Below, one piece after another: positions 16,206-42,595 of a stretch of 64,000 bases of DNA (positions within the stretch are counted from its first letter, which is position 1; each line of letters starts with the position of its first letter). A program made the translations under genes and the position numbers. This DNA comes from a bacterium (GTDB lineage: Bacteria > Patescibacteriota > Minisyncoccia > Phycocordibacterales > Phycocordibacteraceae), in contig JBBCGK010000001.1 in NCBI GenBank assembly GCA_037200965.1, positions 608,001 to 672,000 on the forward strand. The letters run 5' to 3'. Under the pieces are notes generated by a model, which saw only the letters and a list, made by a program, of their open reading frames with translations, was not told the DNA's origin and did not search any database.

Positions 16206-16499
16206 ATGGCTATAATGGCTCGTATGACCAAAACGCTCATCAATGAAAATATGATCGACGCGCGGGAGGCGAAGAATAACTTCGGCGCGCTTATCGACGC
16301 CGCGCAGCGCCGCCCTATCATCATCCGCAAGCACGGGCGCAAGGTCGCCGTCATGCTCTCGCCGGAGGAATTCGCGCTTTTCGAGCGCATGGAGGACATC
16401 GTGTGGGGAAAGAAGGCGATGGCGGCACTCAAAAAGAACGATTTTCTCGGTCCGGCCGCGTCCAAACGCGTTCTCGACAAGTACCGCAATGCGGCTTGA
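16206..16499 (+). CDS. Phd/YefM-family antitoxin
   Basis: MTKTLINENMIDAREAKNNFGALIDAA...RPIIIRKHGRKVAVMLSPEEF; overlaps the downstream toxin by 11 nt. Confidence 0.6.
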   Translation: MAIMARMTKTLINENMIDAREAKNNFGALIDAAQRRPIIIRKHGRKVAVMLSPEEFALFERMEDIVWGKKAMAALKKNDFLGPAASKRVLDKYRNAA

Positions 16500-16758
16500 G
16501 CTTTCCAAAGCATTAGACCGTTTCCTCGCCCGCATTCCGAAGAAACACGCGGGCCAAATTACCCGTAAGATCGACGAGTTGCTGATCAATCCCTATCCCA
16601 TAGACAGCAAGCTCCTGTCCGGCATCCCTCTGTATCGCGTCGATGTAGGCGAATACCGGATAGCGTACCGCGCGTATACGACTATGCTCGTCGTGGTTCT
16701 TGTTGGTAAGCGAAACGACGGCGATGTTTACCGCCGCCTGGCGAGGATGTTCCGTTAG
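16489..16758 (+). CDS. RelE/ParE-family toxin
   Basis: 89 aa with the ...YRVDVGEYRIAYRAY... RelE/ParE fold signature. Confidence 0.65.
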   Translation: MRLELSKALDRFLARIPKKHAGQITRKIDELLINPYPIDSKLLSGIPLYRVDVGEYRIAYRAYTTMLVVVLVGKRNDGDVYRRLARMFR

Positions 16759-20439: not shown

Positions 20440-21702
20440 TCAGGCCGCAACCGAAAGCCTTTCGGCGACGCGCCTAGGCACGTCGCTGTAGAAGCGCTTC
20501 GGCAGGGATATGCCATCTTTCACGCACCCGTTGTTGAACTTGTTGATCTGGTAGTTCACGCTGCCTTGCCAGATATCAACCAGCGATGCATCCCGCACAT
20601 TCGGATGGACGACGAAGTCGGGTGTGTCGTTTCCGGGGCATCTCCAGACGGCACCATCGTAGTGCAGATAGAGTCCGTGCGTGAGCTGATTGCACGGAGC
20701 GATGCCGATGTAGGATGCGGCGCCTTCATGGTACAGCTGTTCAAGGGTCATGACGCCGCGGGTGATGGCCCAAGTGTAGACGTCGACGGCGAGGTCGAGA
20801 TAGTCGTTCTCGAACTTCTCATCCGCAGCCGACCTCACCAGCTTATGGCCCTTGCCGCTCACCATGGTGGGCGGCATCACAACGGGGATATTTCGTTCGG
20901 TTCCCCACTGATAGAGCTCGAACGCGCCATGTACGTTTTCGCCCGTAACCGGAGCGCAGGCGATCTCGAGGCGCTGATGCAGGAGGTCGCCGTTCATCCC
21001 GAGTCCGCAGAGGCGCTCGATGGCGAGGTTCCGCGCCGCGTGATAGTCGAACCTGATATCGCGGAACTCGCGCAAGTTCTGCGGAATGAAGCGATTTTCA
21101 AGCTCGGGATCGAACGACCGTGCGCCGACGAGGAACGTGGTGTTTGGATATGCCGCAAGACGCCGGGTCAGGTCCTCCGATCCGATCCCGTGATAGTGCC
21201 GCGACAGATGGTCATTGCCCATGATTGCCGCCTTGGTGAAGATACCGGCGATGATGTTCCTTTTCGCCAGCTCATCGAGGATGAAGAAGAGCTTTGAATT
21301 CGCCAGCAGTTCTCCGGGACCGAGAAACTTCATCGACTCGAGCCCGAGCAGTTTCGCCTGGTCGACAACCCGCATGACTTCAGGAAGAGTCATGATCGGA
21401 TTGACCAATTCGGCGTTGTTGAAGCAGCCGGGACAGGCGTGCGGACACGGATAGTTCTTCACGAACGTGTCCTTCGCCTCTTTGGAACCGGGCGCATGCG
21501 CGTTGACCTTGGCCGCAAAACCGGCCTCGGGGATATTGAGATCGAGGGTAAGCATTTTCTTTACGCGCTTGCCTTCAATCTCAACGCTTTCCCCGATACG
21601 GCTTTCAGGGAAGCTCCATTTATACACCATCAATGCGTAGCCGTTCGGGATCTGGCCCTTGGGCGGCAGAATGGGCACAACGGCAGGGAATATGTTTTTC
21701 AT
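20440..21702 (-). CDS. radical SAM protein (CPHACPGC) with a C-terminal Cys-containing region
   Basis: CxxxCxxC motif YPCPHACPGCF; C-terminal cysteines CNQL...WRCPGN...NGC. Confidence 0.65.
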   Translation of the reverse strand: MKNIFPAVVPILPPKGQIPNGYALMVYKWSFPESRIGESVEIEGKRVKKMLTLDLNIPEAGFAAKVNAHAPGSKEAKDTFVKNYPCPHACPGCFNNAELVNPIMTLPEVMRVVDQAKLLGLESMKFLGPGELLANSKLFFILDELAKRNIIAGIFTKAAIMGNDHLSRHYHGIGSEDLTRRLAAYPNTTFLVGARSFDPELENRFIPQNLREFRDIRFDYHAARNLAIERLCGLGMNGDLLHQRLEIACAPVTGENVHGAFELYQWGTERNIPVVMPPTMVSGKGHKLVRSAADEKFENDYLDLAVDVYTWAITRGVMTLEQLYHEGAASYIGIAPCNQLTHGLYLHYDGAVWRCPGNDTPDFVVHPNVRDASLVDIWQGSVNYQINKFNNGCVKDGISLPKRFYSDVPRRVAERLSVAA

Positions 21703-21874
21703 GACGGTAGCCTTTCGGGTTGGGTTGCCTTTCTTTCAAGAAGCTTCGCACTTCTTCCGCAAGTATATTTCTACAAGTCAAGGATGTCAATAGGTCGTAT
21801 GCTAAAATAGGGCTTACTTAAAGCATGTGCACAGTAGTGTGGAACGCGTTTGACACGAATATACCCTATAGAGT

Positions 21875-22678
21875 ATGATTAAACTCATGAAAAAAAGACA
21901 AGAGGACGCGTCAGAAACGCTTCTGTCTTTAGGGCTTTCAAGAAGGGAAGTAGGAGTGTATATCGCGCTTTTAGAGCTTGGACACGGGACGGTCACCCAG
22001 ATATCAAGAAAGGCGGGTATAAATAGGACGACTGGTTACGATATCCTTGATGCGTTAGCGCACAAGAACCTCGCGCGGCTCTCCGGTAAGGAGCCAAAGG
22101 AAGAATACGTGGCTGAATCTCCGGAAAAGCTCGTTACGCTGCTTGATGAGAAGCTGGCAGAGACACAAAAGCAGCTGATCCTTGCGAAGGAATTTCTCCC
22201 GCAACTCAAAGCGATGCATACGGTTCAGGATCGTCCGCAAGTACGGTTCTATGAGGGTGTCGAAGGACTCAAAGAAGTATATGAAGACACTTTGACTTCC
22301 CCGGAACCGATTCGTGCGTACGCCTGTATCGACGACATGCACAAGGCGCTCCCCAACTACTTTCCCGAGTACTATAAACGTCGCGCGCGCAAAGGCATCT
22401 CGATACGCGGCATAGTCCCCGAGACAAAAACGGCGATGGCGCAGGCTGCGTTTAATGCGGAGGAAAAACGCGATATAGCGTTCGTGCCTGCCGATAAGTA
22501 TTACTTCTCTCCGGAAATAAATATTTACGCTAATAAAGTTATGGTGGCATCGTGGCGCGAGAAGCTCGGCATCATCATAGAAAGCGCCGAGATCGCTGAT
22601 GCCATGAAAAAGATATATGAGCTGGCGTGGGCAGAAGCCAAGCGGCTTGATGCGGCGAACTCACCGGTGTCGACATAG
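21875..22678 (+). CDS. TrmB-family HTH transcriptional regulator (paralogue 2)
   Basis: HTH REVGVYIALLELGHGTVTQISRKAGINRTTGYDILDAL. Confidence 0.6.
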   Translation: MIKLMKKRQEDASETLLSLGLSRREVGVYIALLELGHGTVTQISRKAGINRTTGYDILDALAHKNLARLSGKEPKEEYVAESPEKLVTLLDEKLAETQKQLILAKEFLPQLKAMHTVQDRPQVRFYEGVEGLKEVYEDTLTSPEPIRAYACIDDMHKALPNYFPEYYKRRARKGISIRGIVPETKTAMAQAAFNAEEKRDIAFVPADKYYFSPEINIYANKVMVASWREKLGIIIESAEIADAMKKIYELAWAEAKRLDAANSPVST

Positions 22679-22714: not shown

Positions 22715-23854
22715 ATGAAAAGCGTTCGCGATATTCCGGTGCTTGAAAACGTACCGGTATTCGTGCGCTCGTCGCTCAATGTTCCGTTGGTAGATGGAAA
22801 GGTAGCGAACGCGTACCGCATCAAGCACGCGCTTCCCACCATCGAATTCCTCCGGAAAGAGAACGCGCGCATTGTTATCGGAAGCCATATCGGGGAAGCG
22901 GGAACCGAGACGCTCGAGCCCGTATACCTCGCGCTCAAGCAGATGCTCCCCGGCGTCTCGTTCTGCCCGGTCTCTACGGGTCCCCGGGCGCGCGAAGCGG
23001 TGCGGGCGCTTCTGCCGGGCGAAGTTCTCGTGCTTGAGAACCTGCGCAGGAATCGGGGGGAAGTGATGAACGACATGGCGTTTGCCGAAGCGCTTGCCGA
23101 ACTCACGGATGTCTTTGTCGAAGATGCGTTCGATACCTGCCATCGCGAGCACGCATCGATAGTAAGCCTTCCGACGCTCCTGCCTTCGTATGCGGGGCTT
23201 CAGCTCATCGAGGAGATCGCCGAACTCTCGAAGGCGCTCAAACCGAAGGCCCCGTCGCTCGCGGTCATCGGCGGCGCGAAGTTCGGCACCAAGGAGCCCG
23301 TGATCCGCAAGCTTCTCTCCCTCTACACGCACGTGTTTGTGGGCGGCGCGCTTGCGAACGATTTTCTCGCAGCTAAGGGCTATCCCGTGGGAAAGTCGCT
23401 CGTTTCGGGCGGAGATGCCGCCGCTACTAAAGAACTCTTGGTGGATAAGAAACTGGTGCTTCCGCTCGATTCGCTCGTCTGCAAATCCGGCGGCGCGAAA
23501 ACGCCCGGACAGGCACGTATCGCGGGACTTGATGACGTTCAGGAAGACGAAACCATCCTCGATCACGGCCCGAAGACGAATGAAATGCTCGCGAGATTGG
23601 CAGCCGGCGCGAAGACGATTCTCTGGAACGGGCCGCTCGGCCAGTATGAGGCGGGCTTCACGGAAGCGACGGATGCGCTTGCGGTCGCCATCGCCGACTC
23701 AGGCGCGGAGTCATACATCGGGGGAGGAGACACGGAAGCTGCCATCGACTCGCTCGGCCTCAACCGCCGATTCACGTTCATATCGACCGGCGGCGGCGCG
23801 ATGCTTTCGTATCTTGCGAAGGGGACGCTTCCGGGGATTGAGGCGCTGGGCTAG
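22715..23854 (+). CDS. pgk: phosphoglycerate kinase
   Basis: Full-length PGK: N-terminal substrate-binding basic patch, hinge, C-terminal ...STGGGAMLSYLAKGTLPGIEAL. Confidence 0.9.
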   Translation: MKSVRDIPVLENVPVFVRSSLNVPLVDGKVANAYRIKHALPTIEFLRKENARIVIGSHIGEAGTETLEPVYLALKQMLPGVSFCPVSTGPRAREAVRALLPGEVLVLENLRRNRGEVMNDMAFAEALAELTDVFVEDAFDTCHREHASIVSLPTLLPSYAGLQLIEEIAELSKALKPKAPSLAVIGGAKFGTKEPVIRKLLSLYTHVFVGGALANDFLAAKGYPVGKSLVSGGDAAATKELLVDKKLVLPLDSLVCKSGGAKTPGQARIAGLDDVQEDETILDHGPKTNEMLARLAAGAKTILWNGPLGQYEAGFTEATDALAVAIADSGAESYIGGGDTEAAIDSLGLNRRFTFISTGGGAMLSYLAKGTLPGIEALG

Positions 23855-24111
23855 GTTCCGTACAGGTTATGGTGCGTGTCGATGTCCGTGAGGACGATGG
23901 CGTCACCTACCATCTCGTAGATGAGTCGCCAATCGCCGGTCACGTTGATGCTTCGAAAGCCCGTCCATTCTCCCCGCAAGGGATGGTTGTTAAGTAGCGG
24001 GTTTTGAGGATCGGCCATAAACAGCCTAAGGCGCTCGACGAGCGCGCGGCGGATACCAGCCGGTAGGCGCGATACTCGTTTCTCAAACTGTCGTTTGCGG
24101 AGAACCTGCAT
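23851..24111 (-). CDS. RelE/StbE-family toxin (mRNA interferase)
   Basis: 86 aa; its stop overlaps the pgk stop convergently; follows the antitoxin gene on the minus strand. Confidence 0.65.
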   Translation of the reverse strand: MQVLRKRQFEKRVSRLPAGIRRALVERLRLFMADPQNPLLNNHPLRGEWTGFRSINVTGDWRLIYEMVGDAIVLTDIDTHHNLYGT

Positions 24112-24113
24112 GA

Positions 24114-24383
24114 CTATGCGCGTATGGCGCGCGCGAATTCTTCAAGGGACGAAGCGATGAAATGCTCCGGATGTTCGCGGTATTCGCGGCTAAGCGCTTC
24201 CCATTCGCGCAGCTTCTCCGGACGCGGTACAAGCGATACCTCGAACCGCCCGTCGGAAACGAACTGCGCGAGCTGCGCGTTCATAACGGTAGTAAGGGGA
24301 ATGCCGAGCTTCTGCGCGGTGCGCTTCGCGGCATCCCGGAGCTTTTTGTCAGTCTTGATGGTGATAGTTGTTTTCGTATTCAT
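24114..24383 (-). CDS. RelB/DinJ-family antitoxin
   Basis: 89 aa; 2-nt gap to the toxin gene. Confidence 0.6.
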   Translation of the reverse strand: MNTKTTITIKTDKKLRDAAKRTAQKLGIPLTTVMNAQLAQFVSDGRFEVSLVPRPEKLREWEALSREYREHPEHFIASSLEEFARAIRA

Positions 24384-24503
24384 ACCTATATACTACTTTG
24401 GGTATGAGCGTGCTGTCAATCCAATGCAGTTCAAATCTCGTCCGCGAGCCCGCGCACTTCACAAAACCGCCTATCTGGGCGGCTTTGTGTTTAAGAGAAC
24501 GGA

Positions 24504-24890
24504 ATGTTTAAACCAGGTATACTTTTAGTTATGGAAGACTGCATTTTCTGCAAAATAGTGAACCGAGAATCACCTGCCTCGGTAGTGTTTGAAGACGATA
24601 CCTCTATGGTAATTGAACCCATTGATCCTATTTCAAAAGGACATGTACTCGTGCTGCCCAAGAAACATTTTGTGAATATGCTCGATACCGACGACGAGAC
24701 GTTATCTCATCTTGCTGTCGTTTCCAAGAATGTCGGGCACACAGTGCTTGGAAAAAACAACGCTCACTCAATGAACCTTCTCCATGCCGCTGGGATGGAG
24801 GCGCAGCAATCCGTATTCCATCTCCACTTCCATATCGTGCCACGGTATGAGAATGATGGGCTGGATCTCTGGTTTAGGAACAGTCTCTAG
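24504..24890 (+). CDS. HIT-family hydrolase (paralogue A)
   Basis: Histidine triad HLHFHIVP; N-terminus MEDCIFCKIV shared with the HIT at 32203..32559. Start may be 24531. Confidence 0.7.
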   Translation: MFKPGILLVMEDCIFCKIVNRESPASVVFEDDTSMVIEPIDPISKGHVLVLPKKHFVNMLDTDDETLSHLAVVSKNVGHTVLGKNNAHSMNLLHAAGMEAQQSVFHLHFHIVPRYENDGLDLWFRNSL

Positions 24891-24991
24891 GATTAGAGAG
24901 GATACTGGAATCGAACCATTCTCTCAGAAAGCACAGTAAGCTGAGCTAACACAATTTCGGTATAAGAATATAGCCCCTACACTCTCTTATC

Positions 24992-25504
24992 TTGGTTCCA
25001 ACAGCGTCTACGAGCTCGCGCACTCTGGACGATAGTGGAACTGCTATAGTTCCTGATATGGAAATTCCACAGATTAAGATGATTTACGCTTATCCGTTAG
25101 ACGAGGACAGGCGACGGTTTTTCTCTCAACAAAACTTAGGCCGGTATCCCTCCGTTGAAGAGGTCAGGGATACGACTTCTCACTGGAGAAATGTATGGAA
25201 TGAAACCAATAGAGACAACAGGATCGTCTTAACGTTACAAGAGTTAACGAAGAGAGTGCCAACGCGGAGCTTAGAGTGTTTCATTATCGGAGGAGGCATT
25301 AAAGCCATGTCTACCCCCTTCATTATTTCAGTCAGAAAAAGAAATGGGGAAGAGCGCTCAGATCAAGACTTCATCGAGACGCTAATTCACGAAGCAGCGC
25401 ATATTTTCGTATCAGACGTTCCGGCCTACTTCGACTCTCTTCGCGAGAAATATTCCGGGAGCCGCTATCTGCCCGGAATCATATACTCATTTACGCGCTA
25501 TTAG
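24992..25504 (+). CDS. hypothetical protein with HExxH motif (possible small metallopeptidase)
   Basis: LIHEAAHIF motif; AT-rich codon usage unlike the core genes. Confidence 0.3.
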   Translation: MVPTASTSSRTLDDSGTAIVPDMEIPQIKMIYAYPLDEDRRRFFSQQNLGRYPSVEEVRDTTSHWRNVWNETNRDNRIVLTLQELTKRVPTRSLECFIIGGGIKAMSTPFIISVRKRNGEERSDQDFIETLIHEAAHIFVSDVPAYFDSLREKYSGSRYLPGIIYSFTRY

Positions 25505-25690
25505 AGAAACTATACTTAGACCTATTTAATTCTCGCCCAAGTGACTTTGCTAACAGTGACCTGCCGGACAGTTATATCCGAGCGATAGAAATCGTTAAGC
25601 AAGAGGGTTACGAAAAGCTGATTGAAGAATACCAGTCCTTCGTGTAGTAGTTCCGAGGTTGTCCGTAAGGTCGCGACCCTCCCATCTGTT

Positions 25691-25770
25691 TCACAAATAT
25701 GCCCGAATCTTCCCCGCATTCCCCTCGAAATCCATTTTGTCCCCTTCCGCTTGGCCTGGGAATATCCAGA
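25691..25770 (-). pseudogene. 3'-terminal fragment (26 codons) of a HIT gene
   Basis: ~93% DNA identity to 32203-32275; translates IWIFPGQAEGDKMDFEGNAGKIRAYL* versus VWIFPGQAEGDKMDFEGNAERIRARL*. Confidence 0.7.
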
Positions 25771-25775
25771 TATTC

Positions 25776-25848
25776 AATCGGTGGCAACGCGGTAGTAGCG
25801 TATCTTGCATGGGAAACGCTTCCGGGGACTGAGGCGCTGGAATCCTAG
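25776..25848 (+). pseudogene. diverged 3'-terminal fragment of a pgk gene
   Basis: Translates ...SIGGNAVVAYLAWETLPGTEALES* versus the pgk C-terminus ISTGGGAMLSYLAKGTLPGIEALG*; ~75% DNA identity. Confidence 0.6.
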
Positions 25849-26615
25849 AGAGCCTTCCACATAAAGGCATGCATATTTTTAAACAGATTAGCGATATCCT
25901 TGTTTTCGATAACAACCGCAGATAAGTCCCGGAGACTTATAAGCGCGACCTTTTCGTTGAAAACAAGAACGTCGACATTGGACGTAAACCATTCGGGGAG
26001 CCGTTTGTCTGATTTATTTTCATATCCGTTCTTCTCGCGCAGAGCTCGCAGTTTTTTGTAGGTTTTAGCGCTTGCGATAAACAAATCCTTCGCCTTAAAC
26101 GCGTGATCGCTATTTGTCTTGTCGAAATCGCCGTATTCTGCTTCGGTGAAGTTTTCGAAGAAAATATCGGCGGGGAAGATGGAATACGTATCGCCGAGCG
26201 TTTTAAACAGTTCCTCGTAAATATTCTTGATCGCACGCTTTCCTTCGAAGAAGCCGACCTTGGGCTTGTTCGTCGCGCGTTCATATATCTTGCTCATGAC
26301 GGCGGCAGTCGAGTCGAATGCTAGAAGCTCCTTCCTAAGATTTGCGGCGACGGTCTTCGGATCGACTGCCGCGTACAGCGTGCGCTTGCCGATAGGTATC
26401 CGAGTAATGAAACCCTTTTTGAGCAGAAGATCCAGATATTCGTAGCAGGTAGCGCGCCGCACGTCCGCTTGGCGGACTATATCCGCGACTCCCATGCGGC
26501 TTTTCCCGAGAAGCGACACGTAAATCACCGCAGCCTTATCCGGCAAACCGATTCGTTCCAACTCCTTTATGAACGGGATATGTTCCATAAGTTCATATAA
26601 GCTGACTTGGAACAA
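25845..26615 (-). CDS. TrmB-family HTH transcriptional regulator (paralogue 3)
   Basis: HTH KAAVIYVSLLGKSRMGVADIVRQADVRRATCYEYLDLL. Confidence 0.6.
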   Translation of the reverse strand: MFQVSLYELMEHIPFIKELERIGLPDKAAVIYVSLLGKSRMGVADIVRQADVRRATCYEYLDLLLKKGFITRIPIGKRTLYAAVDPKTVAANLRKELLAFDSTAAVMSKIYERATNKPKVGFFEGKRAIKNIYEELFKTLGDTYSIFPADIFFENFTEAEYGDFDKTNSDHAFKAKDLFIASAKTYKKLRALREKNGYENKSDKRLPEWFTSNVDVLVFNEKVALISLRDLSAVVIENKDIANLFKNMHAFMWKAL

Positions 26616-26720
26616 ATGTCAACGAAAGCGACATATTTTACCAGTACCCTCTAAACCACCCTTCACTTTATAAGTCTATTAATAAATATAAGCGTTATTC
26701 CAGACACAAGTACCCATTTA

Positions 26721-27245
26721 TTGAATACTGGGCGGGCTGGTATGGCGCTAAAATCAAAGACAACTCTGCAAACCAAACGCGGCATTTTCGAAGTCGGATA
26801 TTACGTTGTAGACGGGAATCCTTATGTTTCTTTCCGCTACGGGGATGTTTCCCAGGGCAGACCAATAGTGCGATTACAGTCGGCTTGCCTTTTCGGGGAG
26901 GCTTTCGGTTCGCTTGAGTGCGAGTGTGGCGCGCAACTTGCCAAGGCTCTGGACGCCATTGTTAGCCGCGGGGCGGGTCTTGTGCTCTATGCCTATGCGG
27001 AAGGTCGTGGCGCAGGGCTTGAGAAAAAGATAGAAGCTATGGAGATTCAAAGGACGACCGGATGCAATACAGTCGAAGCTTTTGACTCGCTTGGTCTTGA
27101 GAAGTCCGACTACCGGGATTATCAGGCTGAGGTGAACATCCTCACCGAGTTAGGCACAAGCCTCCATATCTGCTTGTTTTCGAAAAATCCAGCTCGATAT
27201 CAAGCGCTCAAAGACGCAGGCTTCGATGTAGATCCATATGAGTAG
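26721..27245 (+). CDS. GTP cyclohydrolase II-like protein (RibA/ToxB-like)
   Basis: Zinc-ligand motif RLQSACLFGEAFGSLECECGAQL with the three conserved Cys; ...YAEGRGAGL... matches the GCH II core. Start may be ATG 26742. Confidence 0.7.
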   Translation: MNTGRAGMALKSKTTLQTKRGIFEVGYYVVDGNPYVSFRYGDVSQGRPIVRLQSACLFGEAFGSLECECGAQLAKALDAIVSRGAGLVLYAYAEGRGAGLEKKIEAMEIQRTTGCNTVEAFDSLGLEKSDYRDYQAEVNILTELGTSLHICLFSKNPARYQALKDAGFDVDPYE

Positions 27246-28140
27246 CTCGTCTGAGCTTATGTATCGTTGGCTTCGCGTATCTCCTACCGGAGACGGATAT
27301 ATCGAGCCCGATTATTACGATCAGCTTCTCAGAAAGTATATCTTTGATGGTAAAGAGGATACCGAGTACTTCCGAGAACATCTTGCAAAAGCACCTTCTC
27401 ATTCAGCATTTCTTGAGCTTGGCCCCGGGACCGGACGAGCGACAAATATACTATTCGCATCGGTTCCGGACATACATTCGCTTACGCTCGTTGATTTAAG
27501 CAGCCGTATGCTTAGTAGCTGCAAACAAGTTTTCACCCGCAAAGAATGCATTTCTTATGTCGTTTCCGATTCCATAGATTTCCTGTTGTCAGTGCAGTCG
27601 TCGTACGACTATATCTATAGCCTGTGGAGTCTTTCTCACTCCATACACAAGAATCTTGAAGACTTGGGAAAAGAAGACGGAAAAGCAAAAGTACGAGAGG
27701 CGCTCTTAAAAATGGTACGGGAGAATCTCAACCGGAACGGCTCTTTATTCCTGATACATTTCGATTCTTCCTCTCCCGAGCAGGAAATATCTATTCGGCA
27801 AAGGCGGCGCGATTCCCGTGACCGGAAATTGTTTGCAGATGTCTCCAAACAAAGTCCCTCTAAGGAAATACTCGACGAGTGCCTTGAAGAATTAAGGCGC
27901 TCGGGTGAGATCTGTTTTGAATGTGAGAGGCATGTAGGTACAGCGCTCGAATTCAGTTCGCTCGACGAAGCGCTCGAGTATTATCTTAATTTCCATATGG
28001 CTTCGTATTTCAATACCTCAAGTTCGATCGACGACATCTTGAAGGAGCTTTCTCAGGATTTACTGGAACACCAAGGGAGTGATGGAAAGATACGGATCGT
28101 TCCCGGTTGCTTCATCTACAAAGCAAGTAAGCCTGGTTAA
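27238..28140 (+). CDS. class I SAM-dependent methyltransferase
   Basis: Motif I LELGPGTGRAT; its ATG overlaps the stop of the GCH II-like gene by 8 nt. Confidence 0.65.
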   Translation: MSSSSELMYRWLRVSPTGDGYIEPDYYDQLLRKYIFDGKEDTEYFREHLAKAPSHSAFLELGPGTGRATNILFASVPDIHSLTLVDLSSRMLSSCKQVFTRKECISYVVSDSIDFLLSVQSSYDYIYSLWSLSHSIHKNLEDLGKEDGKAKVREALLKMVRENLNRNGSLFLIHFDSSSPEQEISIRQRRRDSRDRKLFADVSKQSPSKEILDECLEELRRSGEICFECERHVGTALEFSSLDEALEYYLNFHMASYFNTSSSIDDILKELSQDLLEHQGSDGKIRIVPGCFIYKASKPG

Positions 28141-28176
28141 ATGTTGGTTGCCAGAAAGCTCCCTATATAAAAATCA

Positions 28177-28998
28177 CTAAGATACTTGGCTATTCATCAG
28201 ATCGCGCAAAAGCTCGTTCGCATCTATAAGCTGCGAATGCTCCTGCATAAATTCAAAGGCGGAAAGAATCATTTTTTGTATCTCCGAGTTCTTGACTTCG
28301 ACAATCAATCCTTCGCTTAAGGAGAAGAGATATAAGGAATCCTTAAATATCCAGCACTGGCCGCCATGCCTGAAGTACTTTGGATCAATAACATTGACTC
28401 TCGCGGTGCGTCCTTCGAAATCTTTCACCCATTGTATTCCTAGAGAACGCGCTTGTTCCTCAAGCCACCCGATTGGCAAGACAGCTTCGGTAATCGTACG
28501 GCCCTTCTTTATATCGCGGTTTATTCGGTTTGTTTCGGAAACGGTGAACAGGGTATTCCAACTCTTGGTCGCGCGGTCACCTTGGAAGCCCCAGAAGAAC
28601 CGTTGGTTCTTGTTCGCTTCAAAGAGCTCAAGCATGACCTTCCTAATTGCTTCTTTTCCCCGATAGATACATACCGTTGAGTCAGCGCGACCGTGAACCT
28701 GTTGGTTTCCTTCGGGTATTTGCAGCAAGAAACGCTTGAAATCGTATAGTGCCTGATCAATAGTATCTCCGCTATGCAATTGCCACCGCTTGCGTCCTTT
28801 GGCGATGCGCGAAACGGCCAGCCCTCGTTTATGCAGATTCGCCAAAATCGCATAAATGGCAGAGCGGGAGATTCCCGTCTGGCGAGTCAGCTTTAAGGGC
28901 GTATCCGCACCGTCGCGAAGCGCCAAGAGAATCTTCCTTTCCTTGATTGAGAGGCCGAGTATTCGCAGATCATCGTGAAGTGCCATACGGCAAAACAT
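28177..28998 (-). CDS. TrmB-family HTH transcriptional regulator (paralogue 4)
   Basis: HTH KERKILLALRDGADTPLKLTRQTGISRSAIYAILANL. Confidence 0.55.
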   Translation of the reverse strand: MFCRMALHDDLRILGLSIKERKILLALRDGADTPLKLTRQTGISRSAIYAILANLHKRGLAVSRIAKGRKRWQLHSGDTIDQALYDFKRFLLQIPEGNQQVHGRADSTVCIYRGKEAIRKVMLELFEANKNQRFFWGFQGDRATKSWNTLFTVSETNRINRDIKKGRTITEAVLPIGWLEEQARSLGIQWVKDFEGRTARVNVIDPKYFRHGGQCWIFKDSLYLFSLSEGLIVEVKNSEIQKMILSAFEFMQEHSQLIDANELLRDLMNSQVS

Positions 28999-29169
28999 AG
29001 CAAAAGGTATATAACCTGTCCACTTTCTTAGACAGATATATAAAGCATAAAAACCCTTATATACAGCTTATTTCCAGTATTACTCAACTTAGAGAATACC
29101 TTACTATACTGTCAATGTCTTTAGGATCATTCTTATAGAGGGAACTAGAACTTTATATGGGAGACCGCT

Positions 29170-30318
29170 ATGGCTTGCGAAACGAACGAAGTGCCGCAGG
29201 AAGTGACCGCGATCGATCGTTGGATTGACCACGTATTGCACGGAGAAAAGGATACTGCGATTCCAACGTTACTTGGTCGGGAAGTTCCACCTCTTTTGTC
29301 GTGGATAGTGCGGGGCGGATGCGCGATACAGTGCCGCCACTGCATCTTTCCTCACGAAGGCCCGAAAACCTTCGGCGTGCAAACGGGCGAGGAAGCGCTT
29401 CTCGGCATTCTCCGCCAGTTGTCCGGTTCGCGCCACCTCATTCACGAAGGAAGGCAGCTACTTCCGTGGCAGGTACCGATCTTGGCGGCTGCAGGCCGCG
29501 CAGGACACGGAGTATCGCTTATCAATAACGGACAATATGCAGCGCCGAATATGCTGGCGCTATGCGAGCGAGAGGGGCTCGCAATCGACGCGCTTGACGT
29601 GTCGGTCGACGGTACGAAAGATATCCACAATGGACAGCGCGCGAGCAATAATGCCTGGGACATCGCAATGAAAGGGATTGTGCATGCCAAGCACATACTC
29701 AAGACCGATGGCAAACTTACTTCTCTCTTCACGCTCACCACGCTCAATCACGCGCACTTAGCCGAAACGGGAGAGATGCTCACGCAGGTGGTCGATGAAT
29801 GGCACGTGACGACGATGTCGTTACGGCCGGGGATCGAGCACCTGCGGGCAGGCGATCGCGAACTCGCCTTAGCGCTTGAACAATTGCTCGGCGGCAACTT
29901 CGCGAAACCAGTGTTCCTGCGTACCTATTCTCTCGACGATTTTGTCGCTCTGCTTGGAATTCTCGGAAAAGAAACGGCAAATAGGGTTCTCAGGAACGCG
30001 CTGGTGACTTATAACGCCATCGTACTCGATATCGGAATACCCCTGTACTTCTATCCTAAGTCCCTGCAGGTGAATGAAACGTTAGTGATCGACGCGGATG
30101 GGTGGTGGCGTCTGCCGTTTTGCATCCATCACTCGCTTGCGGAACTGCGGGCGGGAGAGGATGAGATGGGCAAGGATATTTCGCATTTCAATGTCGTCCC
30201 GGTACTGCCGTGCGTGGATGTCCCAACTCTCCATGCCAAGGCCGCATCGAGATGGTGGGTCAGTATAGGCCGGGATTGTTTATCGCTTGAGCGCCAGGCG
30301 CTCGAAGCGTTTCTCTAA
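29170..30318 (+). CDS. radical SAM protein (CAIQCRHC)
   Basis: CxxxCxxC motif GGCAIQCRHCIFP ~60 residues from the N-terminus; 382 aa; AT-rich promoter region upstream. Confidence 0.65.
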   Translation: MACETNEVPQEVTAIDRWIDHVLHGEKDTAIPTLLGREVPPLLSWIVRGGCAIQCRHCIFPHEGPKTFGVQTGEEALLGILRQLSGSRHLIHEGRQLLPWQVPILAAAGRAGHGVSLINNGQYAAPNMLALCEREGLAIDALDVSVDGTKDIHNGQRASNNAWDIAMKGIVHAKHILKTDGKLTSLFTLTTLNHAHLAETGEMLTQVVDEWHVTTMSLRPGIEHLRAGDRELALALEQLLGGNFAKPVFLRTYSLDDFVALLGILGKETANRVLRNALVTYNAIVLDIGIPLYFYPKSLQVNETLVIDADGWWRLPFCIHHSLAELRAGEDEMGKDISHFNVVPVLPCVDVPTLHAKAASRWWVSIGRDCLSLERQALEAFL

Positions 30319-30341
30319 CAACCGGAAAGGAGGTGAAAACT

Positions 30342-30461
30342 ATGTCCGGAGCCAATACCGGTTCCGCTGGCGTGGATGCGAAAGCACGTCCGCCAGTGCA
30401 ATCGTCAGGGGCGAATACCGGTTCGACGGGCGTAACGACGCCGCGTTTGCCGCGTAAGTAG
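30342..30461 (+). CDS. 39-aa repeat-containing peptide ORF immediately downstream of the radical SAM gene (candidate precursor peptide)
   Basis: Perfect SD AAAGGAGG 8 nt before ATG, 23 nt after the rSAM stop. MSGANTGSAGVDAKARPPVQSSGANTGSTGVTTPRLPRK carries SGANTGS(A/T)GV twice. Confidence 0.35.
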   Translation: MSGANTGSAGVDAKARPPVQSSGANTGSTGVTTPRLPRK

Positions 30462-30471
30462 CCTCGGTGAC

Positions 30472-30520
30472 TACAGAGAGCCCGTTCACGCTTTTGATTC
30501 GCGTGGGCGGGCTCTTCTCT
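30472..30520 (+). terminator. structured hairpin with T-rich tail after the peptide ORF
   Basis: gagagcccg...cgggctctt followed by ctcttttat. Confidence 0.35.
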
Positions 30521-30738
30521 TTTATACACTAAATGTGATTCTCGATGTTTCTTTAGAATCGATCGGTCGCCGTTCGCGTAGCCGAGACGGGTCTAACAAT
30601 CGAACGATAGCGGCGCAATGCTCAAGTCTCTTGCGGCTGAATGTTTTCAGCGATTGAAGCATTGAGAGACTAAACAGATTACTCTATTCATAAAGACGCA
30701 TATACCACCTCGTAAAGTCACCCAATACCGCTTTGGTA

Positions 30739-31554
30739 TCAACGACGAATATGAAAATCCTTGGATATACGGCGTTTCCACGCGGCGGCTTTCCCAGGGT
30801 CTTTAGCAATTTTTACCTTTGATGTAACTTCGTGATCTAACTTCTTCAACTTATCCTTGGCGCGCTCAAGGTCGGTTTCCGTTTTAAAGAGAAGTTCGAC
30901 TGCCTTTCGAGCTTTGGGATTAAAACGCACTTCAATCACCCATTCGTGGATTACGGCAATAAACACTTCTTGACGAACTTTCGGCGAGTACGATACCTCA
31001 ACGTTAGAGAATGCGAGCTCCCGGGTTGCGAGCTTGTCGAGCGCCGAAGAGGAGCCGATGAGAAGATAGGCTCTTCTTCCTTTTGCTCCAAGGAGCATAT
31101 CGTGGCTTTTGTCGCTATCGCCACGCAGTACACTCGACCAATTATGCGGATTAAAGAGGTAAAGGTGCTGGCGGTGAGGAACACCCTTTTCAATTACTGA
31201 AAACAGATGGGACCATATCCGATCCATAGCAGTAAGACCATGAATGGTAAGCGTGATCTCTTCTCCGCGTTCAAGCTGACTGAAGTCGCCGAGGATGGAA
31301 CTGTTTTTATATTCGACAAGCTGGCGAAGCTGCTTTAACCAATGTTCGCTTACCGATACGGCAGAACGGTAGACGATAACCTTCTCTTGCGCTCTCAGCT
31401 TTCTAAGCGCCCTATAAAAACCCTGCTTCGTGCAGGCGTGCTTCCTCCTCAGGCCTTTAAGGAGCTCAGTAGTCGTAACCGCTCCTTTTTGAAGTACAAA
31501 AGTAAGGACTGAATCTTCAAGGCGGCTGCCTAACAGTTGCATAGCAGTAAACAA
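30739..31554 (-). CDS. TrmB-like HTH regulator (paralogue 5, more divergent)
   Basis: N-terminal wHTH LTFVLQKGAVTTTELLKGLRRK... with a C-terminal TrmB-like effector domain. Confidence 0.45.
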   Translation of the reverse strand: MFTAMQLLGSRLEDSVLTFVLQKGAVTTTELLKGLRRKHACTKQGFYRALRKLRAQEKVIVYRSAVSVSEHWLKQLRQLVEYKNSSILGDFSQLERGEEITLTIHGLTAMDRIWSHLFSVIEKGVPHRQHLYLFNPHNWSSVLRGDSDKSHDMLLGAKGRRAYLLIGSSSALDKLATRELAFSNVEVSYSPKVRQEVFIAVIHEWVIEVRFNPKARKAVELLFKTETDLERAKDKLKKLDHEVTSKVKIAKDPGKAAAWKRRISKDFHIRR

Positions 31555-31643
31555 CCCGTTTACTATACACCCATTTTGGCCCAGATGCTTGAGCTTGGCA
31601 AAAGGCGGGTTCTAAATGTACGCGGACGGAAGAACCGTTCTCT

Positions 31644-32081
31644 TTGGAGGAACGAACTATGTGTTTTTGTGGCTATGATCCGAAAATGGGCGAGAGCGTC
31701 CGGGTGTTTGCTGAGGGGTTGAATCGATCCCTCAGCGCCAAGGCCGAGCGTCTCGGTCTTACCATGTCCGCGCAGATGCAATCGGAAGCGCTCGAGCTGA
31801 ACGCGCTGATCGAACTCCTGAACCAGAAGCTCGCGAACTCGGAAGACTCTCGACGACATGAGCTGGAAGGACTGCTCGGCATCGTGTACCTCATTCGTGC
31901 TCTTATGCAGCCGGAACGAAACGAGATATCCGTTCGCAGCGACTTCGAACTCTCAGTTCGCACGCGGGCAGTTCGACTGGACGAGAGCATGATTCGCTTC
32001 GAACAAATCTTCGAATCCGACCAGGGTGATTTTCTCAGCGAGCGGCTTCGTCGTGCGGTTGCTGCCGCAATTGAGGCTTAA
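31644..32081 (+). CDS. hypothetical protein
   Basis: 145-aa ORF at the distal end of the island. Confidence 0.35.
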   Translation: MEERTMCFCGYDPKMGESVRVFAEGLNRSLSAKAERLGLTMSAQMQSEALELNALIELLNQKLANSEDSRRHELEGLLGIVYLIRALMQPERNEISVRSDFELSVRTRAVRLDESMIRFEQIFESDQGDFLSERLRRAVAAAIEA

Positions 32082-32202
32082 TTTCAGCCTGTCCCTTCTT
32101 GAGAACCCACGTTCTTCTGCTGCTATGCGGTGGAGAACGGAGGGTTCTTCTTTTCGTTTTGGGTTCCGACAGCGCCTGCAGGCTCGCTGAGCTTTACTGG
32201 TT

Positions 32203-32559
32203 CTACAAACGCGCCCGAATCCTCTCCGCATTCCCCTCGAAATCCATTTTGTCCCCTTCCGCTTGGCCCGGGAATATCCAGACATGGGCATGCGCCACTT
32301 CCTCGCCGACGCTCTTCGAGATAATCCAATCGGTATTGAAAGCCTTTTGCTGCGCTCTCGCGACTTTCCGGACAACTTCGAAATAGCGGCCGATGTCGGG
32401 AACGTCCCATATCCAGCGGTAGTGCTGTTTCGGTATGACCTGCACGTGGCCTGGCGTTTCCGGATGGATATCGATAAACGCGAGGAAGAAATCGTCCTCA
32501 TATACCTTGTATGAAGGAATCTCGCCCCGGACGAGCTTGCAGAACACGCAGTCTTCCAT
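32203..32559 (-). CDS. HIT-family hydrolase (paralogue B)
   Basis: HAHVWIFP histidine triad; start MEDCVFCKLV at 32559 (the 176-aa ORF is over-extended). Confidence 0.7.
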   Translation of the reverse strand: MEDCVFCKLVRGEIPSYKVYEDDFFLAFIDIHPETPGHVQVIPKQHYRWIWDVPDIGRYFEVVRKVARAQQKAFNTDWIISKSVGEEVAHAHVWIFPGQAEGDKMDFEGNAERIRARL

Positions 32560-32605: not shown

Positions 32606-34336
32606 ATGTTTCCGCTCCATGGTCCTTTGGACGAACGAATACGGGAAATACTCTCCGAGTATGACGACCTGACCGCCGCGCTGCTCTCGCGCAGGGGCAT
32701 TACGACCAAGAAAGAGGCCGAAACCTTCCTCAACCCGAGCTATGAGGAGCATCTCCACGATCCGCTCCTTATAAAGAACATGCCGGGGGCGGCGAAGATG
32801 CTTGCGGAAGCGATTGCCTCGGGCGAGCGCATCTGCGTATGGAGCGATTATGACTGCGACGGCATTCCGGGCGGCGTCCTTCTCCATGATTTCCTCAAGA
32901 AAGCGGGCGCGAACTTCGAGAACTATATCCCGCACCGGCATGACGAAGGATACGGGCTCAATATTCCGGGGCTCGAGAAGCTTGCGGGGAGCGGCGTGAA
33001 GCTCGTCGTGACGGTCGATTCCGGCATCACGGATGTCGAACAGGTCGCGCGCGCGAAAGAGCTCGGCATGAAAGTCATCGTGACCGACCACCACCTGCCG
33101 GGCCCCGCGCTTCCTCCGGCTGATTTCGTTATCGACCAGAAGCAGGAAGGAGAAACGTCGCCGTACCAGGAACTGTGCGGCGCGGGAGTCGCGTGGAAAC
33201 TCGCCTGCGCGACGCTTGCGGTCGCTCCCGGGCTTCGGGAGAAGATTCCTGTCGGCTGGGAGAAGTGGCTTCTCGATATGGCGGGGCTCGCGACGATCGC
33301 CGACATGGTTCCGCTTACGGGCGAGAACCGGGTTATCGCGAAATACGGACTCCTGGTCATGCGAAAATCGCCGCGCATTGGCCTGCAAAGACTTTGCCGC
33401 GTCGCCCGCGTCGAGCAGCGCTCGATCACCGAAGGCGATGTGGCGTTCATGCTCGCGCCGAGGATAAACGCGGCGTCGAGAATGCTCGATCCGCGCGACG
33501 CGTTCGACCTTCTCACGACAAGCGATGAGATAGAGGCGGACGAGCTCGCGAAGAAGCTCGAGAAAGCGAACCGGGCACGTCGCGCGTCCGCCGGAGCGAT
33601 AACGCGGGAGGTGCACGACCGGATTGACGAGCGCCTTTCGGTGCCGGACGCCGAACTCCCTGCCGTGATCGCGATCGGGAATCCTTCGTGGCGCCCGGCC
33701 CTTCTGGGGCTCGTCGCAAGCGGCGTCGTCGAGGAGTACGCGCGCCCGGTATTTCTTTGGGGGAGGGAAGCGGACGGCCGCCTCAAGGGTTCGTGCCGCA
33801 CGGACGGGACGGTGAACGTGGTCGAGCTCATGGAAGCCGCGAAGGATACCTTCGTCGAATTCGGCGGCCATGCCGCGTCCGGCGGATTCACCGTCCGCGA
33901 CGACGCGGTTTTTTATCTTGAGGAACGCCTTTCGGAAGCGAAATCGAAACTGAAGTCCGCGGAAAGTGCCGACGCGTTCTCGCACGCGGACGCCGAGATC
34001 GCTCCGCATGAAGTCACGGCAGCCCTTCTGTCGAAATTAGAGAAGCTCGCGCCCTTCGGAGAGGGAAACCCAAAACCGCTCTTCCATTTCCGCGACGTGC
34101 TCCTTGACGAAGCGTCGCGCTTCGGGAAAGGAGAGGAGCACCTGCGCCTCCTTATCATGAGCGACGGCTTCAAGCCGCTCGAAGCGATCTGTTTCTTCGC
34201 GAAGCGCGAACTTGGGGCGAAGTGCTTCGAGTTTTCGGAAGGGGACCGCGTGCATGTGCTCGCGCATCTCGAGCGAAATCAGTTTTCGAAATACGGTTCC
34301 GTGCGGCTGCGGTTGGTTGACGTAAAGAGGGTTTAA
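32606..34336 (+). CDS. recJ: single-stranded-DNA-specific exonuclease RecJ
   Basis: DHH motifs (DYDCDG, VTVDSG, VTDHH) and DHHA1 domain; 576 aa. Confidence 0.85.
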   Translation: MFPLHGPLDERIREILSEYDDLTAALLSRRGITTKKEAETFLNPSYEEHLHDPLLIKNMPGAAKMLAEAIASGERICVWSDYDCDGIPGGVLLHDFLKKAGANFENYIPHRHDEGYGLNIPGLEKLAGSGVKLVVTVDSGITDVEQVARAKELGMKVIVTDHHLPGPALPPADFVIDQKQEGETSPYQELCGAGVAWKLACATLAVAPGLREKIPVGWEKWLLDMAGLATIADMVPLTGENRVIAKYGLLVMRKSPRIGLQRLCRVARVEQRSITEGDVAFMLAPRINAASRMLDPRDAFDLLTTSDEIEADELAKKLEKANRARRASAGAITREVHDRIDERLSVPDAELPAVIAIGNPSWRPALLGLVASGVVEEYARPVFLWGREADGRLKGSCRTDGTVNVVELMEAAKDTFVEFGGHAASGGFTVRDDAVFYLEERLSEAKSKLKSAESADAFSHADAEIAPHEVTAALLSKLEKLAPFGEGNPKPLFHFRDVLLDEASRFGKGEEHLRLLIMSDGFKPLEAICFFAKRELGAKCFEFSEGDRVHVLAHLERNQFSKYGSVRLRLVDVKRV

Positions 34337-42458: not shown

Positions 42459-42595
42459 CGGTTCAGTGGAGTCACGAAAACTATCGTGTCGGGTATTCTA
42501 CCGACACACGGTCAATCAGTATGGTAGATGCATGTCGGTGAGCGTTCCAACAAGGATTAAGTTCATTCTATGTTAGAACGGTATATACTAGATTC

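Follow-up and report, generated by a model that had tools for sequence, protein, structure and literature searches.

Gain of accessory functions is poorly understood in Patescibacteria, or the candidate phyla radiation (CPR), whose genomes are tiny. Genomic islands are common in the group, and its horizontal gene transfer (HGT) is mostly intra-phylum (PMC12455944); experiments have demonstrated that Patescibacteria can be naturally transformed, with homologous recombination (PMC10633639). Flexible islands and HGT hotspots that lack an integrase, including those of Patescibacteria (PMC12455944), hold deviant, strain-specific cargo between core genes, with one junction reused in different lineages. 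Homology-facilitated illegitimate recombination, as defined in PMC3240628, and the comparable sequential displacement model for type VI secretion modules of Vibrio cholerae and for Rhs loci (PMC5361080) combine one homologous anchor with one illegitimate joint, and the incoming cassette displaces the resident one, leaving orphaned 3′ gene fragments behind. Here we describe a 64-kb stretch of contig JBBCGK010000001.1 (the window, in whose numbering all coordinates are given) from a Paceibacteria (CPR) genome, in which positions 23855 to 32202 form a lineage-specific, integrase-less accessory island at the junction of the phosphoglycerate kinase gene (pgk) and a gene for a histidine-triad (HIT) protein (Table 1).

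The locus resembles the integrase-less islands and hotspots in the deviant, strain-specific nature of its cargo, in the reuse of its junction, and in a setting of transfer mostly within the phylum, among organisms with ComEC and type IV pili; the window itself has genes for ComEC and a PilB-type ATPase. Unlike them, it holds a permuted scar that records the joining of two cassettes, and its cargo consists of regulator-plus-operon modules rather than the restriction-modification, translation or transcription genes of the islands in PMC12455944. The single homologous anchor, the single illegitimate joint, the displacement of a resident cassette and the orphaned 3′ fragments would place it close to the sequential displacement systems, although its anchors are housekeeping genes (pgk and HIT/recJ) instead of a polymorphic toxin locus, recipient-type and donor-type 3′ fragments are kept back to back, and the mechanism is one that we infer. 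With the classical integrase-mediated island it shares deviant composition and absence from relatives (L003, L008, and 71 species-level loci), whereas it has no integrase, no tRNA or transfer-messenger RNA (tmRNA) site, and no short att repeats. As such, this is an ordinary kind of island; its most original content is a cassette of a TrmB-like regulator, a radical S-adenosylmethionine (rSAM) enzyme and a GANTGSxG peptide, together with the pattern in which TrmB-like regulators are plugged in with different cargoes. The locus is a clean, doubly assembled case of an island probably built without an integrase, and its flanking housekeeping genes stand next to each other in most of the class.

A first-pass annotation of the window had placed about 8.3 kb of AT-richer accessory DNA at 23851 to 32205, between pgk and the HIT/recJ genes, against a core of about 60% GC. 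Windowed composition agrees with the contrast (GC of 0.494 in the island versus 0.575 in the remainder of the window), although the core is nearer 57% GC. The dip at the island is the strongest in the window; the lowest nonoverlapping 8.35-kb stretch elsewhere has a GC of 0.544 (mean, 0.575; sd, 0.017). Codon usage is shifted too. GC at third codon positions (GC3) is 0.69 to 0.75 in the core flank genes tpiA, pgk, HIT1, and recJ, and it is 0.475 to 0.62 in the genes for HIT2, the HExxH protein, the regulators T2, T3, and T4, the GTP cyclohydrolase II (GCH-II) homologue, the methyltransferase, the rSAM enzyme (rSAM2), and the 145-amino-acid (aa) protein. The YafQ/RelB pair next to pgk has a core-like GC3 of 0.68, so that the compositional anomaly really begins near 24384. 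The divergent intergenic regions are AT-rich (GC of 0.38 at 26616 to 26741, 0.33 at 28999 to 29169, and 0.47 at 30463 to 30738). Accessory DNA also extends beyond the interval first annotated, since further TrmB modules lie at 20440 to 22678 and at 1771 to 3434.

Relatives were collected with a PGK profile, run against one genome of each GTDB species, and 71 of the loci include pgk as well as recJ. The PGK of the window is closest to proteins labelled Parcubacteria, Paceibacterota, or Kaiserbacteria. The tpiA-pgk-HIT(−)-recJ backbone is kept across these 71 Paceibacteria species, and the closest relatives found have PGK proteins 74 to 78% identical to that of the window. The distance from pgk to recJ has a median of 538 nucleotides (nt) and a maximum of 4107 nt in these loci (800 nt or less in 46, 800 to 2000 nt in 14, and more than 2000 nt in 11), compared with 8752 nt in the window. 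In 46 of the 71 species only the HIT gene separates pgk from recJ, and in L003 and L008 pgk is followed directly by a convergent HIT gene, with a 4-nt overlap of stop codons, and then by recJ. Thus, pgk and the HIT/recJ genes are adjacent elsewhere, relatives lack the island, and the first-pass view of the 8.3 kb as accessory DNA stands.

Extra DNA between pgk and recJ is found in 25 of the 71 genomes, and the inserts in the 13 examined are unrelated to each other. They include YafQ/RelB genes (L006, L039, and L056; in L006 the order is pgk, YafQ/RelB, HIT, and recJ), reverse transcriptase-like and Avd-like genes (L039), a HicAB-like pair (L081), an ATPase gene (L098), and genes for two large secreted proteins (L063). 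The pgk-HIT junction is a recurrent insertion point, and none of its other known occupants comes near the window island in size. It is highly improbable that the region goes back to a common ancestor and that every sampled relative has lost it. The toxin-antitoxin (TA) pair is indeed common to three of them, but the many species with HIT alone between pgk and recJ speak against such a history, as do an island GC3 that is 0.1 to 0.25 under that of the core and a scar that shows rearrangement; moreover, no gene of the right-hand block of the island (cargo 2) occurs between pgk and recJ in any of the 71 loci.

The scar lies inside the island and consists of degenerate copies, or ghosts, of the 3′ ends of the two flanking genes. 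Repeat analysis gives the order A, cargo 1, B′|A′, cargo 2, B, where A and A′ are pgk 3′ ends and B and B′ are HIT1 3′ ends. The 153-nt scar consists of a HIT 3′ end and a pgk 3′ end, both 5′-truncated, fused head-to-head, with microhomology of at most about 3 nt at the joint. A′ has 16 differences in 67 nt, spread over the codon positions as 5/5/6, and invariant PGK residues are broken; B′ has 9 differences in 86 nt. The ghost order, HIT-3′ and then pgk-3′, is the reverse of the ancestral pgk|HIT order, which makes this a new illegitimate joint and not an ancestral relic. The joint puts two alternative pgk-3′...HIT-3′ cassettes in tandem. Furthermore, the A′ frame closes with a TAG overlapping the T2 stop (CTAG), a stop overlap like those of pgk and yafQ in the window and in L006 and of pgk and HIT in L003 and L008. 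This resemblance suggests that an intact pgk once directly preceded cargo 2.

The first-pass annotation had recognized a ghost junction here and had read it as a sign that two cargo blocks were acquired stepwise at the same hotspot. The junction is real, the layering and the recurrent site hold, and the rest has to be revised, as two simple insertions would not give a permuted joint and the permuted order leaves no relic of the old junction. Two origins of the ghosts were considered and rejected. Import from a sampled relative finds no support, since both ghosts resemble the genes of the window itself at least as closely as those of L003, L006, or L008, and descent of B′ from a functional diverged allele gains none from its codon-position counts (2/3/2), with only the stop-to-stop change being suggestive.

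The joint could in principle be an assembly artefact in which the haplotypes pgk-cargo 1-HIT and pgk-cargo 2-HIT were concatenated. The source is a metagenome-assembled contig, and Logan contigs break inside the B/B′ repeat; these breaks occur only within the 43-nt exact repeat shared by B and B′, where they are expected. An independent NCBI assembly from another sample (GCA_015655515.1, contig JAATEX010000061.1; L102) runs across the joint and matches the window at 99.94% identity over 9,996 nt. The joint is also covered by Logan contigs of two sequencing runs (L103 and L104; SRR28211700 and SRR10968228). In addition, A′ is decayed, nonfunctional, and 76% identical to pgk and so cannot be a strain variant. 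We therefore regard an artefact as having very little probability. Exact-protein look-ups for PGK, TrmB2 (T2), and HIT1 returned the same arrangement only and no strain variant without the island.

We consider it fairly probable that the layered island was joined through the import of an alternative cassette by homologous recombination and one illegitimate join. The oldest layer is the YafQ/RelB TA pair at pgk, and its presence beside pgk in L006, L039, and L056 supports the layering. HIT2 and the now-frameshifted HExxH gene form the second layer. The third is the 6.4-kb block of three self-contained modules, each with a TrmB- or TrmBL2-like regulator divergent from its cargo across an AT-rich region; the cargoes are a GCH-II variant with a methyltransferase, an rSAM enzyme with a GANTGSxG peptide, and a 145-aa helical protein. 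DNA would have been taken up from a related strain with a different cassette at the pgk-HIT locus, and it would have been integrated by a homologous crossover in one core flank and an illegitimate join at the other end, leaving the 153-nt scar between the second and third layers. Such an event would be homology-facilitated illegitimate recombination or, equivalently, a Campbell-type single crossover with a circularised fragment. The status as an island, its layers and genes, the scar with its order, and the conservation of the modules are observed, whereas the way of recombination and every biochemical function are inferences. The scar records the joining of two alternative cassettes, which makes recombination-driven gene gain in CPR directly testable.

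Several observations weigh against this explanation. No donor genome with TrmB2 immediately behind pgk turned up, and the ghosts match no sampled relative better than the genes of the window itself; import is therefore favored rather than proven, and an internal duplication keeps some probability. A CTAG at the A′/TrmB2 boundary could arise by chance with a probability roughly estimated at 0.05 to 0.1. B′ is less diverged than A′ (9/86 versus 16/67; Fisher P = 0.03, marginal), which a single simultaneous event does not predict, unless through gene conversion or chance. Homologous modules elsewhere lie in islands with serine recombinases (L013 and L016), so that an integrase may have brought in the island DNA and been lost afterwards. 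As to the modules themselves, GCH-II and the methyltransferase were rejected as a conserved pair, because the methyltransferase relatives in L016, L018, and L019 have other neighbors, and a scan for sigma-70 promoters and terminators gave no enrichment over shuffled sequences.

The internal alternative is a tandem duplication within the lineage of a segment that starts 67 nt before the pgk stop and ends 86 nt before the HIT stop, after which the cargo diverged by deletions and insertions. A duplication of this kind yields exactly the novel joint seen (Y|X), the best matches of the two ghosts are the pgk and HIT genes of the window itself, and A′ looks neutrally decayed. However, cargo 1 and cargo 2 have no gene in common and no detectable DNA similarity, and several precisely placed extra events would be needed, such as replacement of the TA pair by TrmB2 with a stop overlap by a dead pgk fragment. 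A′ and B′ would also be of the same age, yet they differ in divergence (P = 0.03). On balance, we rate this history as unlikely and below import.

Two nested site-specific integrations, one at the pgk 3′ end (A and A′ flanking cargo 1) and one at the HIT 3′ end (B′ and B flanking cargo 2), with subsequent loss of the integrases, likewise rank below import and seem to us marginally less plausible than a duplication. Elements with a gene 3′ end as their target often carry a copy of that end, and each cargo block here is indeed bracketed by a direct repeat of a gene 3′ end. Homologous modules elsewhere adjoin large serine recombinases (L013 and L016), and an insertion sequence (IS)-type transposase gene lies about 6.8 kb from the island. 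The repeat pairs interlock (A..B′A′..B), however, instead of being cleanly nested, and there is no recombinase gene or remnant in the island by Pfam and NCBIfam (nor by PHROGs for the open reading frames [ORFs] scanned with it). The TA pair adjoins pgk in L006, L039, and L056, and the 38-nt gap after it in L006 has no room for a pgk ghost. Serine recombinases are also not known to create target duplications of 67 to 86 nt.

Other signs of a mobile element were sought as well. The 64-kb window contains no tRNA, tmRNA, or Rfam RNA, and the island has no att-like short repeats, its repeats being the 67- and 86-nt interlocked copies of protein-gene 3′ ends. No DNA match was found among 50,697 phage and 72,556 plasmid records, and in PHROGs only generic TA, HIT, and methyltransferase families were matched. 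A search for the island genes in other lineages and in phage, as proposed with the first-pass annotation, located the rSAM and methyltransferase modules in other CPR genomes and gave no phage link (phage records, PHROGs, and, for the rSAM family, IMG/VR). A defence island was also considered and rejected; PADLOC returned generic HIT, methyltransferase, and winged helix-turn-helix (wHTH) matches only, with no system.

Table 1. Features of the pgk-recJ region and of the insertion upstream of pgk
Feature	Coordinates	Strand	Evidence and remarks
Separate 2.3-kb insertion between tpiA and pgk	20440–22678		rSAM/SPASM gene, 20440–21702 (−), 420 aa, Pfam Radical_SAM/SPASM; T1, TrmB-like, 21875–22678 (+), Pfam TrmB
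pgk, left core flank	22715–23854	+	Pfam PGK, E 1.8e-98; last 67 nt (23783–23849) are repeat copy A
YafQ/RelE-type toxin	23851–24111	−	Pfam YafQ_toxin, 40.9 bits (cut-off 30); stop overlaps pgk stop (CTAG)
RelB/DinJ-like antitoxin	24114–24383	−	NCBIfam TIGR02384, E 5.7e-7, 29.7 bits, under cut-off of 45.65
HIT2, complete histidine-triad protein	24531–24890	+ (opposite to HIT1)	Pfam HIT, E 2.9e-23; canonical HxHxH (HLHFHIV)
HExxH (HEAAH) gene	25079–25647	+	Three-frame translation; frameshifted near 25470–25504
B′, ghost of last 27 codons and stop of HIT1-type gene	25688–25773	−	77/86 nt (90%) identical to 32200–32285; stop kept as TGA
A′, ghost of last ~24 codons and stop of pgk	25774–25848	+	25774–25840: 51/67 nt (76%) identical to 23783–23849
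T2, TrmB-like	25845–26615	−	Pfam TrmB, E 1.2e-12, 47.9 bits; annotated start at 26588 gives 247 aa
Palindrome TGTCAACGAAAGCGACA, candidate operator	26617–26633		T2/GCH-II divergent region; 29 nt upstream of annotated T2 start
GTP cyclohydrolase II homologue	26742–27245	+	Pfam GTP_cyclohydro2, E 3.8e-33, 114.8 bits
Class I SAM-dependent methyltransferase	27238–28140	+	Pfam Methyltransf_25/11/12; 8-nt overlap with GCH-II gene
T3, TrmB-like wHTH, divergent from rSAM2	28177–28998	−	Pfam TrmB, 25.9 bits (cut-off 25.6)
Palindrome TGTCCACTTTCTTAGACA, candidate operator	29017–29034		Overlaps promoter-like site for T3
rSAM2, radical-SAM enzyme	29170–30318	+	CxxxCxxC (C51/C55/C58)
39-aa peptide MSGANTGSAGVDAKARPPVQSSGANTGSTGVTTPRLPRK	30342–30461	+	Two GANTGSxG units and basic tail; strong Shine-Dalgarno AGGAGGTG 6 nt upstream
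T4, 271 aa	30739–31554	−	N-terminal winged helix and PLD-like C-terminal domain (predicted fold); TrmBL2-like architecture
140/145-aa helical protein, divergent from T4	31659–32081	+	No sequence match
HIT1, right core flank	32203–32559	−	Pfam HIT; variant triad HAHVW; last 86 nt (32200–32285) are repeat copy B
recJ, conserved right anchor	32606–34336	+	Pfam DHH/DHHA1/RecJ_OB; 86% identical to L003 and L006

The cassette at 28177 to 30461 is comparable to known systems in which an rSAM enzyme acts with a peptide (PqqE-PqqA, SkfB, SuiB, and the HxsB-type His-Xaa-Ser systems) in that a short ORF with a strong ribosome-binding site adjoins the enzyme gene and in that its motif is kept even though the enzymes have diverged to 26 to 30% identity. 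The repeated short motifs recall HxsA, and SkfB, a maturase of ribosomally synthesized and posttranslationally modified peptides (RiPPs), is the best structural match to rSAM2 in the PDB (template-modeling [TM] score of 0.45 for an AlphaFold2 model with a pLDDT of 90.7). The predicted model, a partial TIM barrel, matches the fold of SkfB, SuiB, anSME, MoaA, and viperin, with no close structural relative. In contrast to the known systems, rSAM2 has no SPASM/twitch auxiliary-cluster cysteines: the CxxxCxxC triad holds the sole invariant cysteines in 28 family members, and there is no SPASM match in Pfam. The peptide contains no Cys and hardly any aromatic residues, and it is leaderless, with the motif starting at residue 2 or 3; some peptides of this kind are only 11 aa long. 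Enzyme and peptide are both without a curated family, as neither Pfam nor NCBIfam has a model for the peptide or one specific to rSAM2.

The rSAM2 family comprises 53 clusters among 5.8 billion proteins, and every named one belongs to a CPR lineage; it is absent from IMG/VR except for one partial match of 29% identity. Homologues 26 to 67% identical to rSAM2 have a divergent TrmB-like gene upstream in 22 loci. They are adjoined, usually downstream and sometimes upstream, by one or two small ORFs, each behind a strong ribosome-binding site; the encoded peptides carry one to three copies of (G)AN(T/V)GS(A/T)G ahead of a basic PRxPK-type tail (among the shortest is MGGANTGSTGK). Overall, N-x-G-S-x-G peptides adjoin the enzyme in about 18 of the 21 distinct loci with flanking sequence, at enzyme identities down to 26%. 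The neighborhoods are otherwise unrelated (near RNase Y, in an smpB-adjacent island with a serine recombinase, or near MscL). The cassette is conserved and is apparently undescribed and confined to CPR assemblies; nothing similar is described in the titles and abstracts found by searching the rSAM/RiPP literature.

Judging from this conserved association, rSAM2 and the peptide would be an enzyme-substrate pair, which would yield either a RiPP-like product or a peptide-derived small molecule, as with PqqA and PqqE. Since the peptides have no Cys and mostly no aromatic residues, a thioether or aromatic cross-link is unlikely. We tentatively propose, while holding it somewhat less probable than its opposite, that the cassette represents a new class of ribosomal peptide modification or of peptide-derived metabolite, so far limited to CPR/Patescibacteria, in which an rSAM enzyme without an auxiliary cluster works on a leaderless, Cys-free, eight-residue motif; that it moves as a self-regulated unit; and that the flexible genome of Paceibacteria is built from many TrmB-like regulator and cargo modules recombined between core genes. 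The cassette, with its own regulator and candidate operator and without a curated family, occurs in a group that is usually considered poor in secondary metabolism.

Elsewhere, large serine recombinase genes are present with an rSAM-peptide module that is smpB-adjacent and accompanied by a DNA methylase gene (L012/L013, 1098 to 9504) and with a methyltransferase homologue (L016, 469 to 6359). The rSAM-peptide and methyltransferase modules of other genomes may therefore, as far as their neighbors indicate, travel on integrative elements.

GCH-II enzymes normally open the ring of their substrate to a formylated intermediate, which is then deformylated (PMC9478397). The island homologue is alike to RibA in its fold family and, when aligned to 2bz0, in retaining the zinc ligands Cys54/65/67 and Arg128. 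It is unlike RibA in that Tyr105 (E. coli RibA numbering) is replaced by Met and the gene is coupled to that of a methyltransferase. A Tyr-to-Met switch reportedly makes a paralogue from Streptomyces coelicolor stop at the formylated product. One S. coelicolor GCH-II paralogue is mentioned as having a function unrelated to flavin synthesis (PMC13151069, a secondary account citing Spoonamore et al. 2006). The island protein scores under the cut-offs of the equivalog models (TIGR00505, 100 bits versus 206; NF001591, 119 versus 148), and the methyltransferase belongs to a family of only 22 clusters. No riboflavin-pathway genes surround the GCH-II gene in the island, where its neighbors are the methyltransferase gene and TrmB-like genes. 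Our best guess, made with low confidence from these residues and neighbors, is that the two enzymes might make a methylated pyrimidine derived from GTP and not used for riboflavin.

Archaeal TrmB and TrmBL2 are the closest described relatives of the regulators. T1, T2, T3, and a fifth protein outside the island (T5) have the N-terminal TrmB winged helix by Pfam, their size of about 245 to 275 aa matches that of TrmBL2, and palindromes lie in upstream regions of their own genes. They differ in being bacterial (CPR), in that no sugar-binding subdomain can be inferred, and in forming many divergent paralogues, each with a different cargo; the literature that we searched does not link TrmB regulators with CPR. 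T1 and T5 score 49.0 and 38.9 bits against Pfam TrmB (PF01978; cut-off of 25.6). The NCBIfam TrmB and TrmBL1 equivalogs give 18 to 32 bits with cut-offs of 600 to 650, the regulators being about 80 aa shorter. T1, T2, T3, and T5 are full-length paralogues about 21% identical, so that four are detectable in 64 kb, and each is divergently transcribed from a different partner. The first-pass annotation had counted three TrmB-like regulators in the island; T2 and T3 match by sequence, whereas T4 (30739 to 31554) was rejected as a TrmB member by sequence and is TrmBL2/TrmB-like in its predicted architecture only. The other gene identities of that annotation agree with Pfam and NCBIfam, except that the HExxH gene is frameshifted and that the peptide is placed in the 39-aa ORF of Table 1. 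Searches of Pfam, NCBIfam, PHROGs, and PDB sequences with the 140/145-aa helical protein divergent from T4 returned nothing.

Just ahead of the regulator genes are palindromes, whose position is good circumstantial evidence for autoregulating, module-specific repressors or activators. An orthologue of T3 (L131) has a near-identical palindrome, TGTCAAGTTTTTTAGACA, at the equivalent place, and in most rSAM loci of other genomes the regulator is preceded, at 25 to 35 nt, by a GTCAA-N4-6-TTGAC motif. Two perfect GTCAA-N-TTGAC palindromes occur at T5 (2595 to 2610 and 2663 to 2678), and they are the only two in 64 kb, compared with 0.12 expected. Each TrmB-like regulator would thus appear to control its own module. 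T3 is orthologous to the L131 regulator (283 bits) and scores 26 to 41 bits against the group of TrmB proteins usually linked to rSAM genes (L010, L012, and L014). T3 is not an orthologue of the usual rSAM-linked regulator and T1 is closer to that group, which implies an exchange of regulators between modules.

T5 (2661 to 3434) is one of a divergent pair at 1771 to 3434, in a GC dip, the other being a gene for a 253-aa protein without a Pfam match. A further palindrome, TGTCGGGTATTCTACCGACA, is found at 42487 to 42506 in another GC dip, between ORFs of 129 and 560 aa, with no obvious regulator gene adjoining.

The toxin and antitoxin genes are separated by 2 nt, in an order that fits a TA operon, with a promoter-like TTGACA-18-TAGTAT upstream of the antitoxin gene at 24419 to 24390. 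The toxin has an orthologue 65% identical at the equivalent position in L006 and is present in L039 and L056 too; the antitoxin is 79% identical to its L006 counterpart. HIT2 is 32% identical to HIT1 and at most 46% identical to any syntenic HIT protein, with a GC3 of 0.525. The HExxH gene is probably a pseudogene, given its frameshift, which has an identical sequence in an independent Logan contig (L002), and its protein is without a match in Pfam, NCBIfam, and PHROGs.

HIT1, with a GC3 of 0.69, is 78% identical to the syntenic HIT protein of L008, and motif alignment shows that in HIT1 and its syntenic type 1 relatives (HAHVW) the third His is absent. The HIT slot was compared among the window, L003, L006, L008, L039, L059, L070, L081, L098, and L100. 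Across Paceibacteria it holds a member of one of two nonorthologous subfamilies, one with canonical HxHxH and the other with the variant HAH(V/I)W/S and an HYRW(I/V)WD motif. The type is independent of the PGK tree (canonical in L003 and L006, variant in the window and L008), and variant-type proteins are 55 to 78% identical to HIT1 even where PGK is only 42 to 47% identical. This mismatch adds to the evidence that genes at the locus have been replaced repeatedly by recombination.

The insertion between tpiA and pgk is separate from the island. The tpiA-pgk gap has a median of 22 nt in relatives and is 100 nt or less in 63 of 80 and more than 500 nt in 6 of 80, L003 being one of these; this junction is used for insertions in the manner of the pgk-HIT junction. 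No homologue of the rSAM/SPASM gene was found in the loci of relatives, and no precursor peptide gene was seen adjoining it upstream of pgk. In L003, an Avd-like gene and a reverse transcriptase gene, a putative diversity-generating retroelement, lie directly upstream of pgk (8618 to 10004).

Two further features of the window were noted. A second TA-like pair (a PhdYeFM antitoxin and an 89-aa partner) is located at 16215 to 16758, upstream of the PilB/T2SSE ATPase gene. The IS-type transposase gene (rve_3 and HTH_Tnp_1; 300 aa) lies at about 38989 to 39891, between a metallo-beta-lactamase-fold gene and a helix-turn-helix (HTH) gene, and it is not at the equivalent place in L003.

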